NCBI RefSeq assembly: GCF_053078305.1
Contig: NZ_CP166879.1
Length of the DNA stretch: 64,000 nucleotides
Direction: 5' to 3' (one strand)
Every line of letters begins with the position of its first letter. The first letter of the stretch is position 1. The notes beneath the pieces are model-generated. The model did not search any database, was not told where the DNA came from, and saw only the letters and a list, made by a program, of their open reading frames with translations. Positions 1 through 17,668 of this stretch are shown here, in pieces. The position numbers and the translations under genes were made by a program.

Positions 1-910
1 CATTGAGGGTAAATGTGTCAGTGATATCAAACTGATCCATGATCAAATGCTCAATGCCACCCTGTATTACTCCGGCTCTGGTGGCCTGGTGATGAACACG
101 ATTTCCTGTGTCGATCTGGCTCTGTGGGATCTGTTCGGCAAAGTGGTCGGGCTTCCGGTTTATAAACTTTTAGGCGGCGCTGTTCGTGATGAGATTCAGT
201 TCTACGCCACAGGTGCGCGTCCGGATCTGGCAAAAGAGATGGGCTTTATCGGTGGCAAAATGCCGACGCACTGGGGGCCACATGATGGCGATGCGGGGAT
301 CCGCAAAGATGCCGCTATGGTCGCGGATATGCGTGAAAAATGCGGTGAGGATTTCTGGTTAATGCTCGACTGCTGGATGAGTCAGGACGTGAACTATGCG
401 ACCAAACTGGCCCACGCTTGCGCGCCCTATAACCTGAAATGGATCGAAGAGTGCCTGCCGCCACAGCAGTATGAAGGTTATCGCGAACTGAAACGCAACG
501 CGCCAGTCGGAATGATGGTCACCAGCGGTGAGCACCACGGCACACTGCAATCTTTTCGTACGCTTTCAGAAACCGGTATCGACATTATGCAGCCGGATGT
601 TGGCTGGTGCGGTGGCTTAACCACGCTGGTGGAAATTGCCGCAATCGCCAAATCCAGGGGGCAACTGGTGGTGCCGCACGGTTCGTCTGTTTACTCCCAC
701 CATGCGGTGATCACCTTCACTAATACGCCATTCAGCGAATTCCTGATGACCAGTCCGGATTGTTCAACGATGCGTCCGCAGTTTGACCCGATTCTGCTCA
801 ATGAGCCGGTTCCGGTGAATGGTCGTATTCATAAATCAGTGCTTGATAAACCCGGTTTTGGCGTCGAACTCAATCGTGACTGCAATTTGAAACGCCCCTA
901 CAGCCACTAA
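1..910 (+). CDS. rhmD: L-rhamnonate dehydratase (enolase superfamily), 5' end lies outside the window
   Basis: Frame is open from position 2 to the stop at 908-910 (ORF track 47..910). Followed by rhmT and rhmA in the order of the rhmRDTA operon. Confidence 0.85.
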
Positions 911-966
911 TCACTCCGGGCGTTGCTGTGACAACGGTAACGCCCACATATTCTAAGGAGCTTTTT

Positions 967-2256
967 ATGAGCACCGCTTTGCTTGACGCCGTGGTGAAGA
1001 AAAACCGTGTGCGTTTAATTCCGTTTATGTTGGCGCTGTATGTGCTGGCGTTTCTCGACCGTTCGAATATCGGTTTTGCCAAACAGACCTACCAGATTGA
1101 TACCGGGTTGAGTAATGAAGCTTATGCGCTGGGAGCAGGCATTTTCTTTGTGGTATATGCGTTTCTGGGTGTTCCGGCGAATCTTTTGATGCGCAAACTG
1201 GGGGCCAGAACCTGGATTGGTACGACAACACTGCTGTGGGGATTTCTTTCGGCAGCCATGGCATGGGCCGATACTGAAGCGAAATTTCTGATAGTTCGCA
1301 CTCTGCTTGGTGCTGCGGAGGCCGGATTTTTCCTTGGTATGATTTATCTCACCTCGCAATGGTTTCCGCAGCGTAATCGCGCCAGCATTATGGGGCTGTT
1401 CTATATGGGCGCACCGCTGGCGTTAACACTGGGATCACCGCTTTCCGGCGCGCTGCTGGAGATGCATGGATTTATGGGGCATCCCGGCTGGTTCTGGATG
1501 TTTGTGATTGAAGGATTGTTGGCAGTCGGCGCTGGGGTATTCACATTCTTTTGGCTTGATGACACACCGGAGCAGGCACGTTTTCTGAGTAAACAAGAAA
1601 AAACGTTGCTTATCAATCAACTGGCAAGTGAAGAACAACAGAAAGTGACTTCTCGGCTGAGCGATGCGCTGCGTAATGGGCGAGTCTGGCAACTGGCGAT
1701 TATCTACCTGACCATTCAGGTGGCGGTTTACGGATTAATTTTCTTCCTGCCGACCCAGGTTGCGGCATTGCTGGGAACAAAAGTGGGCTTTACAGCGTCG
1801 GTGGTCACCGCCATTCCGTGGGTTGCGGCCTTGTTTGGGACCTGGCTTATTCCGCGCTATTCCGATAAAACCGGCGAACGGCGTAATGTCGCAGCGCTGA
1901 CATTACTGGCGGCGGGCATTGGTATTGGTCTGTCCGGGCTGCTTTCTCCAGTACTGGCGATCGTAGCGCTGTGTGTTGCAGCCATCGGGTTTATTGCCGT
2001 GCAGCCGGTGTTCTGGACGATGCCGACACAACTGCTTTCCGGTACGGCGCTGGCTGCGGGGATTGGTTTTGTAAACCCGTTTGGTGCAGTGGGCGGGTTT
2101 ATTGCCCCGATTCTGCGCGTGAAAGCAGAAACGTTATTTTCCAGCGATGCGGCGGGATTACTGACGCTGGCAGCGGTGGCGGTCATCGGTTCGCTGATTA
2201 TTTTCACTCTGCGTGTAAATCGCACCATTGCGCAGACCGACGTGGCACATCATTAA
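967..2256 (+). CDS. rhmT: MFS transporter for L-rhamnonate (YfaV)
   Basis: ORF 928..2256. ATG at 967 ([12 protein letters not shown]...) is preceded by the RBS taaggag at 954-960. Multi-helix hydrophobic MFS-type protein. Confidence 0.9.
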
Positions 2257-2273
2257 ATAGGTTAAGGAACACG

Positions 2274-3077
2274 ATGAACGCATTATTAACCAATCCCTTT
2301 AAAGAACGTTTACGCAAGGGCGAAGTGCAAATTGGTCTGTGGTTAAGCTCAACGACTGCCTATATGGCAGAAATTGCCGCTACTTCCGGTTATGACTGGT
2401 TGCTGATTGACGGGGAGCATGCGCCAAACACCATTCAGGATCTTTATCACCAGCTACAGGCGGTAGCCCCCTATGCCAGCCAACCCGTGATCCGTCCGGT
2501 GGAAGGCAGTAAACCGCTGATTAAACAAATCCTGGATATTGGCGCGCAAACTCTACTGATCCCGATGGTCGATACTGCCGATCAGGCACGTCAGGTGGTG
2601 TCTGCCACGCGCTATCCTCCCTACGGTGAGCGTGGTGTCGGGGCCAGTGTGGCACGGGCTGCGCGCTGGGGACGCATTGAGAATTACATGGCGCAAGTTA
2701 ACGATTCACTTTGTCTGTTGGTGCAGGTGGAAAGTAAAACGGCACTGGATAATCTGGACGAAATCCTCGACGTCCAAGGGATTGATGGCGTGTTTATTGG
2801 ACCTGCGGATCTTTCTGCGTCGTTGGGCTACCCGGATAACGCCGGGCACCCGGAAGTGCAGCGAATTATTGAAACCAGTATTCGGCGGATCCGTGCTGCG
2901 GGTAAAGCGGCTGGTTTTCTGGCTGTGGCTCCTGATATGGCGCAGCAATGCCTGGCGTGGGGAGCGAACTTTGTCGCTGTTGGCGTTGACACGATGCTCT
3001 ACAGCGATGCCCTGGATCAACGACTGGCGATGTTTAAATCAGGCAAAAATGGGCCACGCATAAAAGGTAGTTATTGA
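2274..3077 (+). CDS. rhmA: 2-keto-3-deoxy-L-rhamnonate aldolase (HpcH/HpaI aldolase family)
   Basis: ATG at 2274 ([24 protein letters not shown]...) with RBS aaggaa. The longer ORF-track frame from 1971 is an upstream in-frame extension overlapping rhmT. Confidence 0.9.
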
Positions 3078-3117
3078 TATCAAAGGCCCATGGGGATCGG
3101 CTGTGGGCCTGTGTTAA

Positions 3118-3342
3118 TTAGTGGTTATTCGCTGCCAAATCGGCTTCGCTTAGCTGGGTGGCCGCGAGCACCTGGTCACGATCAATGCCCTGTTCCAGCA
3201 TGCGCAAAGCAATTTTAATGGCTTGTTCATGCATACCTTCCTGCAAACCTTCTAATTTACCTTGCTGCAAACCTACTAATTTACCTTCTTGCCAGCCAAT
3301 TTGATGTCCTTCCTGCCGTAGCCGTTCAGCAATAGTCATCAA
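3118..3342 (-). CDS. ypaA: Rpn-family C-terminal fragment paralog (YpaA-like)
   Basis: 74-aa ORF nearly identical to the C-terminal ~70 aa of the adjacent rpnB product ([21 protein letters not shown]...), including the 24-nt repeat. Confidence 0.6.
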   Translation of the reverse strand: MMTIAERLRQEGHQIGWQEGKLVGLQQGKLEGLQEGMHEQAIKIALRMLEQGIDRDQVLAATQLSEADLAANNH

Positions 3343-3351
3343 TCTCTCCTT

Positions 3352-4323
3352 TTAATGACAGTTCGGAATATCAGCATCAGTGAGTTGGGTTGCCGCCAGC
3401 ACAATCTCACGTTCAAAGCCCTGCTCCAGCATGCGCAAGGCAATTTTAATGGCTTGCTCATGCATGCCTTCCTGCAAACCTTCTAATTTACCTTTCTGCA
3501 GACCCTCCAATTTACCTTGCTGCAAACCTTCTAATTTACCTTCCTGCCAGCCAATTTGATGCCCTTCCTGCCTCAGCCGTTCAGCAATAGTCATTAATCT
3601 CTCCTTTTGTAGTGGTGAACGTTCGGCAATCTCCTGAATAAAACGGGTGAAACGGGAGGTATCGCCGCATTGCAGCAGATAATTAAACAGTGTTTGTAGC
3701 TGGCTGTCATTAGTGAAGCCTCTAACCAAAAGCGTGGTGATCCTGTCGACCATACCGATTAAATCGCGGTCGCGAATATGCTTTTGAATCAGTTCAAGCA
3801 GAGCTATACGCCGATGTTGCATGATCTCATCGTCAGGTACGATGGTAATATCCACCAACGGAAAAGCTTCGGTGTACAACTGCCGGGCAAGTTGCGGATC
3901 GTCAAACTCATCCAGCCAGTTGAGTGAGTACGGGTAGGGCGAGGTTTCGCCATGATAAAACAGCAACGGCACCACCAGCGGGACTCTGTCATAGCCTTTG
4001 TCCAGGTGACGCTGCATGGCGGCAGTGGCATAGCGCATTAGCCGAAAAGCCATATTCTTTTCTGCAGAGCTTTGATGTTCAATCACGCAGTAGATATAGC
4101 CGTCACCGTCGCTGGTTTCCACGGACCACAAAACATCCGAGTAGTAAGCGCGTAAACTTTTTTCAATAAAACTAGTGGGTTCCAGGCGTAAGGTTTGCAG
4201 GTTGCAAAGCTTGCGCAGTGGTTCTGGTAAATGTATTTCGAGAAAATCCCGTGCGGTTTCGGGTGTGAACATAAAGGTTTTAAATACTGCATCATGCGGG
4301 GAGGAGGTTGTTGATTCGGTCAT
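3352..4323 (-). CDS. rpnB: Rpn (YhgA-like) recombination-promoting nuclease / transposase_31 family protein
   Basis: 323-aa ORF ([17 protein letters not shown]...). Position between rhmA and glpC matches yfaD/rpnB. C-terminal GKLEGLQ repeats. Confidence 0.8.
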
Positions 4324-4515
4324 GGTTGTCCGTCACCTGATATTTATGATGACGCGACATTACGGTTATCCCAGGCCTTTGACATCTGCCAGTTTCAGCC
4401 TTTGCGAGACGTTTTCAGAGGAATTTTCACTGCGTTGCAACGCATACATTGGGCACGGAATCGTGTACGCAAAAATGCCCGGTAACCACATGCTTACCGG
4501 GCATCAGAAAGGAGT

Positions 4516-8580
<4,065 letters not shown>

Positions 8581-17449: not shown

Positions 17450-17668
<219 letters not shown>

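Follow-up and report, generated by a model that had tools for sequence, protein, structure and literature searches.

The 64,000-nucleotide stretch of DNA analysed here (henceforth the window) carries two minus-strand open reading frames (ORFs) between yfaU, which ends at position 3077, and glpC. The longer one (3352..4323, minus strand) encodes a 323-residue protein, RpnE-L, which ORF analysis, Pfam, NCBIfam and RefSeq concur in describing as a PD-(D/E)XK nuclease of the Rpn/YhgA-like type, the predicted toxin of the locus. RpnE-L matches Pfam PF04754 (Transposase_31) with E=6e-88 and 294 bits against a cut-off of 21, which places it in the Rpn/YhgA-like family, and TIGR01784 with 179 bits against a cut-off of 52. 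The NCBIfam equivalog model for RpnE (NF007418/PRK09956) scores 722 bits, above its cut-off of 583 for RpnE orthologues, while the RpnA NCBIfam model stays below its own cut-off on the long ORF. Of 5,426 complete E. coli genomes, 5,420 contain a match to the locus region. All the genomes examined, K-12 MG1655 among them, have the orthologue flanked by glpC and yfaU (rhmA) in the order glpC-rpnE-ypaA-yfaU, and wherever RefSeq names the gene in these genomes, the name is rpnE. Taking the equivalog score, the glpC/yfaU position and the RefSeq name together, we assign the long gene as rpnE (yfaD). The initial annotation had named it rpnB, an identity (RpnB, YfcI) that we rejected because the K-12 orthologue (L002) is annotated rpnE, the best equivalog is RpnE and Zhong et al. 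pair ypaA with rpnE; the exclusion draws on annotation, NCBIfam models and the literature. The locus of the window is not of the K-12 type, the closest complete genome at this position being that of strain 95-3192 (99.3% identical).

Nested in the rpnE frame lies an internal cistron, rpnE-S (3352..3594, minus strand), predicted to encode an 80-residue intragenic antitoxin with the C-terminal HTH_Rpn_C domain. Its start is an in-frame ATG at 3592-3594, 80 codons upstream of the stop and preceded by AAAAGGAGAG, and its Shine-Dalgarno (SD) site, read from the sequence as AAGGAGAG, occupies 3599..3606 on the minus strand. The string AAAAGGAGAGATTA-ATG at 3592-3608 thus combines an internal SD with an in-frame ATG, as in an RpnS cistron, and AAAAGGAGAG stands upstream of 68 of the 70 S-type ATGs in the loci that we collected. 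This organization is known from the Rpn toxin-antitoxin system (Zhong et al., 2023, PNAS, PMC10400941), in which the Rpn proteins are toxins and the C-terminal domain, which an internal start allows to be made separately as well (RpnS), is the antitoxin. Neutralisation was demonstrated for RpnA, RpnB, RpnC and RpnP2, and a plasmid-encoded Rpn protects against phages (PMC10400941). A consensus scan of positions 3050-4520 found no sigma-70-like internal promoter, and the internal transcription start reported for K-12 is not visible in this way. PADLOC 2.0 contains no model for Rpn proteins.

The shorter ORF (3118..3342, minus strand) comprises 74 codons when read from a TTG and 73 when read from the ATG at 3337-3339. 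In the latter form (3118..3339) it is ypaA (rpnE-Ss), which the ORF and alignments mark as a free-standing duplicate of rpnE-S. An SD site that was duplicated along with the gene (3344..3351, minus strand) overlaps the end of rpnE, whose stop codon lies at 3352-3354. In an alignment of ypaA and the 3' region of rpnE that starts at AAAAGGAGAGATT(A/G)ATG, the two are near-identical from the SD through the repeats described below to the helix-2 region, with one 24-nt di-unit as the sole indel; their last ~20 codons are far more diverged, one of the two ending in ...DRDQVLAATQLSEADLAANNH. In alignment A2 the homology extends ~36 nt upstream of the ATG and ~25 nt beyond the SD, and in copy 1 it breaks at ...GCTGAT|ATT.... 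The upstream homology and this break together suggest that ypaA arose by a tandem duplication of ~250 bp, whose boundaries can be placed approximately from the same alignment. Copy 1 would span 3370..3630 (minus strand), from the rpnE linker through the S domain, ending ...GATGCTGAT, and copy 2 would span 3139..3369 (minus strand), taking in the last rpnE codons and ypaA up to ...GAAGCCGAT. The residues IPNCH* with which rpnE now ends apparently represent the duplicated linker in a different reading frame. Alignments A1 and A2, with their single 24-nt indel, thus agree with the initial view that ypaA duplicates the C-terminal part of the rpn gene beside it. The published work likewise describes ypaA as a second copy of RpnE-S, named rpnE-Ss and expressed in K-12, where both RpnE-S and YpaA proteins were detected by SPA tag, and considers that Ss genes derived from their upstream rpn gene (PMC10400941).

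In most genomes RefSeq/PGAP gives ypaA as an incomplete pseudogene, 'missing N-terminus', and extends it to the rpnE stop; only some records describe it as a protein or as a 'Rpn/YhgA-type helix-turn-helix domain-containing protein'. Despite the pseudogene label, ypaA is an intact, conserved ORF of 57-81 aa with its own SD and ATG: the ORF, the SD and the ATG are preserved in 32 of 32 two-gene loci. The consequence for annotation is that the long gene should be called rpnE rather than rpnB and that ypaA should be treated as intact, though it is usually marked as a pseudogene fragment. The convergent genes yfaU and ypaA are separated by 40 nt, which include a GC-rich hairpin of 10 pairs (3084-3110) that may be a terminator shared by the two genes; its T-run is weak.

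Both rpnE and ypaA contain a tandem repeat array. Tandem Repeats Finder, run on the whole 64-kb window, reported a period-24 array at 3467-3547 in rpnE (3.4 copies, 84% matches, score 127) and another at 3234-3292 in ypaA (2.5 copies, 88% matches, score 97), which coincide with the tandem 24-nt repeats first noted at 3470-3545 and 3238-3290; just three further tandem arrays in the window reach a score of at least 50. Self-identity at period 24 is 0.84 in the rpnE array and 0.89 in the ypaA array, compared with 0.45 at period 12 and ~0.2 at the remaining lags. The idea that the arrays are a chance resemblance or an assembly artefact has a negligible probability and was ruled out by the repeat finder and by shuffling: the highest count of periodic matches in 20 shuffled 64-kb windows was 32, whereas the rpnE array has 48 of 57. 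The same arrays also recur in many complete genomes, and strain THO-010 (L024) has a protein haplotype identical to that of the window; no point in favour of chance or artefact was found.

The coding strand of both arrays is the minus strand, on which GGT AAA TTA GAA GGT TTG CAG SAA is translated as GKLEGLQ(Q/K/E), in accordance with the GKLEGLQQ/E reading given in the initial annotation. At the protein level each array is a row of four-residue units (xxxG), each closed by Gly, in which KLEG-type units alternate with LQxG-type units, and the 24-nt period exists because of this alternation. The basic unit of change is 12 nt (4 aa), not 24, the 24-mer being a KLEG+LQxG di-unit. Counted in this manner, the rpnE array (3466..3549, minus strand) consists of WQEG followed by six 4-aa units, corresponding to residues 16-43 of RpnE-S and to 3.4 x the 24-nt di-unit, and the ypaA array (3235..3294, minus strand) consists of WQEG followed by four 4-aa units, or 2.5 x the di-unit.

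These are the already published strain-variable four-amino-acid repeats of the Rpn antitoxin domain, and not a new kind of feature; all that we observed agrees with the account of Zhong et al. (2023). All E. coli RpnS and RpnSs proteins carry strain-variable 4-aa repeats, located 8-20 residues after the Met in the first, dimerising helix (PMC10400941). In agreement with this description, the rpnE repeats vary among strains and begin at residue 16-20 after the internal Met. Of the 13 N-terminal residues of RpnE-S, 12 are the same in the crystal chain of RpnA-S (PDB 7TH0, 49 aa), the overall match being weak (E=0.19). RpnA-S lacks an insert and runs directly into the segment that aligns after the RpnE-S array, which puts the rpnE repeats where the published insertion in helix 1 is located. 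A precomputed PF27070 (HTH_Rpn_C) assignment is recorded on near-identical homologues. In an AlphaFold2 model of the RpnE-S monomer there are two helices, essentially one long helix, with residues 3-57 including the entire array in one helix at a pLDDT of ~84-89; a Foldseek search of this model against the PDB gave no match. The tested member of the published system is RpnC-S and the solved one RpnA-S (7TH0); it belongs to the same family and includes the same locus as the one studied here, and we see no difference in kind, the repeat numbers being 6 and 4 in the window versus 0 and 1 in K-12. The first account of this DNA was right about the repeats and the duplication, and had not recognised that the repeats are held in an RpnS antitoxin domain or that ypaA is a free-standing antitoxin gene.

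Repeat number, n, is counted here in 4-aa units from the end of ...GWQEG up to MHEQ. To sample the locus, we took complete genomes across the BLAST ranking together with contigs encoding two YpaA variants, which yielded 32 two-gene loci including that of the window. Units were counted from the sequences themselves; the lengths of BLAST spans were dropped as a counter, being confounded by the paralogy of the two copies. Among the 32 two-gene E. coli loci, n is 0, 1, 2, 3, 4, 5, 6 or 8 in rpnE and 0, 1, 2, 4 or 6 in ypaA, with 15 distinct combinations of the two. Database proteins from E. coli, Shigella, E. fergusonii, the cryptic Escherichia clades and Salmonella always differ by whole 4-aa units and have up to 9 of them (best 120 of 264). 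Every indel comprises a whole 4-aa unit and leaves the four-residue spacing of Gly intact. Certain deletions are not in register with the unit (KLEG-LHEQ in K-12), as expected if they come from slippage between short homologies. The differences in RpnE length among strains (299-331 aa) are thus repeat polymorphism and not errors. The proposal that repeat number varies in the rpnE-type gene and in ypaA is upheld by the strain comparison that had been suggested as its check: repeat number is not identical among strains and changes in whole 4-aa steps across the 32 two-gene loci. In one metagenome contig (L021, OEQM01000798.1), the frame of the rpnE copy continues beyond ...MLEQG into a tail of unrelated sequence, probably through a frameshift or a misassembly near the contig end, and this locus was left out of the counts.

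Matched spans do not differ among K-12 derivatives, among O157:H7 strains or among members of the H72-H77 clonal group. The arrays thus differ between lineages yet are stable within clones, and the locus is therefore not phase-variable. We rejected a phase-variable contingency locus on this constancy and on the fact that the 12-nt units are always in frame. The two genes appear to vary independently in repeat number. In the first 22 two-gene loci (14 combinations), rpnE and ypaA never had equal n, a pattern with P=0.16 under random pairing; a common haplotype in which each gene has four units (L033-L036) then refuted it. In most genomes, the n of YpaA differs from that of the resident RpnE.

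The functional meaning of repeat number has been worked out in RpnC. There, one repeat added to RpnC-S or to RpnC-L abolishes neutralisation unless both have it, so that RpnC-L is blocked only by an RpnC-S of equal repeat number, a specificity shown in RpnC only (PMC10400941). The reading that we favour, and hold with good though not complete confidence, is that the variable 4-aa repeats of the Rpn family tune the pairing of RpnS with RpnL, and do so both in rpnE and in its duplicate ypaA. RpnE-L would be a toxic PD-(D/E)XK nuclease, and the internal SD and ATG would yield the RpnE-S antitoxin from the same frame. The long first helix, which makes up the S-S and S-L interface, would contain the repeats; one more unit would add roughly a turn to this helix, and the pairing of S with L proteins would thereby be tuned by unit number. 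Gain and loss would proceed in whole 12-nt steps, most simply by slipped-strand mispairing or by unequal exchange between near-identical 12/24-nt units, slippage being a mutational mechanism that we infer. The tandem duplication of ~250 bp would have given ypaA a second, independently varying array. By analogy, RpnE and YpaA are expected to behave like the tested Rpn antitoxins. If the RpnC rule applies here, YpaA, whose n is usually unlike that of RpnE, would fail to neutralise the resident RpnE-L in most genomes. The text supplements of Zhong et al. (2023) contain no table of RpnE-S versus YpaA repeat numbers within genomes, and our literature search found no later paper on RpnE or YpaA. The locus would illustrate the published principle of a toxin and an antitoxin in one frame whose pairing is tuned by four-residue helix repeats.

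A neutral explanation would be that the array is a slippage-prone helical linker whose unit number drifts without functional effect, and that ypaA is a decaying duplicate, a pseudogene. The RefSeq/PGAP label carried by ypaA in most genomes fits this explanation, as do the ~40% of sampled genomes that lack ypaA, the one with an IS2-disrupted rpnE, and the apparent independence of n in the two genes, where the initial absence of equal pairs had P=0.16 and an equal pair was found later. A decaying gene is, however, hard to reconcile with an ORF, SD and ATG intact in all 32 two-gene loci or with the detection of YpaA protein in K-12 (PMC10400941), and a neutral linker with indels that are all whole 4-aa units preserving Gly at every fourth position or with the loss of RpnC-S/RpnC-L neutralisation upon addition of one repeat (PMC10400941). 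We consider the neutral explanation unlikely.

The copies also recombine with one another. Among 60 evenly spaced genomes, ~35 have both genes, 24 have one gene only and one has an IS2-disrupted rpnE. All four one-gene alleles that were read (O157:H7, HS and two others) join the rpnE N-terminal region to a ypaA-type tail. One of the one-gene alleles (L011) follows the rpnE copy of its two-gene relative (L019) through the rpnE-specific array and then switches cleanly to the ypaA copy within the shared ...CTGGAACAGGGC segment, a junction that, judged from its sequence, is the product expected of an unequal crossover. On the reading that we favour, such crossovers between the copies would delete ypaA and create rpnE-ypaA fusion alleles. 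The present analysis establishes the anatomy of the locus, its polymorphism in 4-aa steps, the conserved internal start and the crossover chimera. Chimeras occur among database proteins as well, P0011 having an rpnE-type array on a ypaA tail and P0040 a hybrid tail. Recombination between ypaA and the rpnB-type gene, as it was then called, had been anticipated in the initial annotation, and the L011 crossover and the chimeric proteins bear this out; of the hot spot proposed there, the exchange between rpnE and ypaA stands, whereas change is seen between lineages and none within clones. A metagenome scan for the junction of rpnE stop and ypaA start returned 2 loci only, one of them cut at a contig end. 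When species-representative genomes were searched with the SD-ATG 28-mer, the matches comprised one E. coli contig and no outgroup by which to polarise the one-gene state. In E. coli UTME-10 (L017, NZ_CP157104.1 1677904-1681613), IS2 truncates rpnE just past the start of the S domain and the rest of the locus is displaced.

Four array types are common to rpnE and ypaA in the collected loci, and the F/I and L/Q variants of the YpaA tail occur in all four combinations. Because of these shared types and combinations, the L011 junction, the hybrid P0040 and the independent repeat numbers, the data are compatible with ypaA acting as a silent cassette that swaps arrays and C-terminal tails into rpnE by unequal crossover or gene conversion, a role that we nonetheless judge rather unlikely. 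If it were true, E. coli would have a built-in means of re-keying the specificity of the RpnE toxin-antitoxin pair, for example for escaping phage-encoded antitoxin mimics.

A further possibility, along the lines of the hot spot beside a recombination-promoting nuclease gene in the initial annotation, is that RpnE-L itself cuts at or near its own repeats and promotes RecA-independent recombination, thereby changing n and making or deleting ypaA. Exchange between rpnE and ypaA does exist, and the same possibility is raised in the Discussion of PMC10400941, where RpnL as a driver of repeat expansion and duplications is the authors' speculation. Against it, the arrays are constant within K-12 derivatives, O157:H7 and the H72-H77 group, so that any rate must be low; the L011 crossover lies in ordinary shared homology, as for homologous recombination; and repeats of 12/24 nt slip without a dedicated enzyme. 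We therefore regard nuclease-driven change as very unlikely. It concerns the mechanism of change, and as such it could be compatible with the toxin-antitoxin explanation.

Repeats of similar design are found in other proteins. The TAEL repeats in HsdS of EcoR124I and EcoR124II (cited in PMC10400941) are also in-frame 12-nt (4-aa) units in a helical spacer, and their copy number alters specificity via helix length. The length of the TAEL array determines how a DNA recognition sequence is spaced, whereas rpnE array length is proposed to set protein-protein pairing, and the proteins are unrelated. The GxxxG repeats of FliH/YscL (Trost and Moore, 2009, PMC2674601) also place Gly at each fourth residue in an E/Q/K-rich, predicted helical segment, and their number varies widely (m=0-12 in FliH) between species rather than strains (PMC2674601). 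Homology to FliH/YscL was rejected, as the best match reached 37 bits against a cut-off of 293 and reflects composition, namely the Gly-every-fourth pattern. The Deca-GX3 motif of Yae1/Lto1 (Paul et al., 2015, PMC4523923) is likewise a GX3 repeat helix and mediates heterodimer formation; unlike rpnE, these proteins are eukaryotic and have a fixed repeat number, and there is no common descent. Pfam Yae1_N matched the arrays with E=2e-4 and 6e-4, below the gathering score. The Gly at each fourth residue accounts for the weak, sub-threshold matches to both Yae1_N (deca-GX3) and FliH (GxxxG).

Other repeats lie elsewhere in the window. A perfect heptanucleotide array, (GACCAGC)x120, occupies 55285-56128 (844 bp, 100% identical) and starts 9 nt past the ATG of a gene (55276-58176, plus strand) for a 966-aa HsdM-family N6-adenine methyltransferase, in which it is in frame and encodes 40 x DQRPATS. 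This HsdM-family locus is present in only 28 of 5,426 complete E. coli genomes, with a matched span of 523 to 1057 bp elsewhere versus 1251 bp here, and several of the differences are not multiples of 21. The heptanucleotide repeat, very long and apparently variable in length, could act as an on/off switch for a Type I restriction-modification system. Inside an hsdS-like ORF (58251-59360, plus strand) for a Type I specificity subunit (Pfam Methylase_S) is a perfect 24-nt repeat of 2.8 copies (58657-58723) that encodes IEELEAAH IEELEAAH IEELEA and resembles the TAEL helical-spacer repeats of EcoR124I/II, in which the copy number determines how long the gap in the recognition sequence is. Finally, an 87-nt unit is repeated 1.9 times at 17496-17664 with 93% matches and contains a GCCGGATAAGGCG-type palindromic (REP/BIME-like) sequence.
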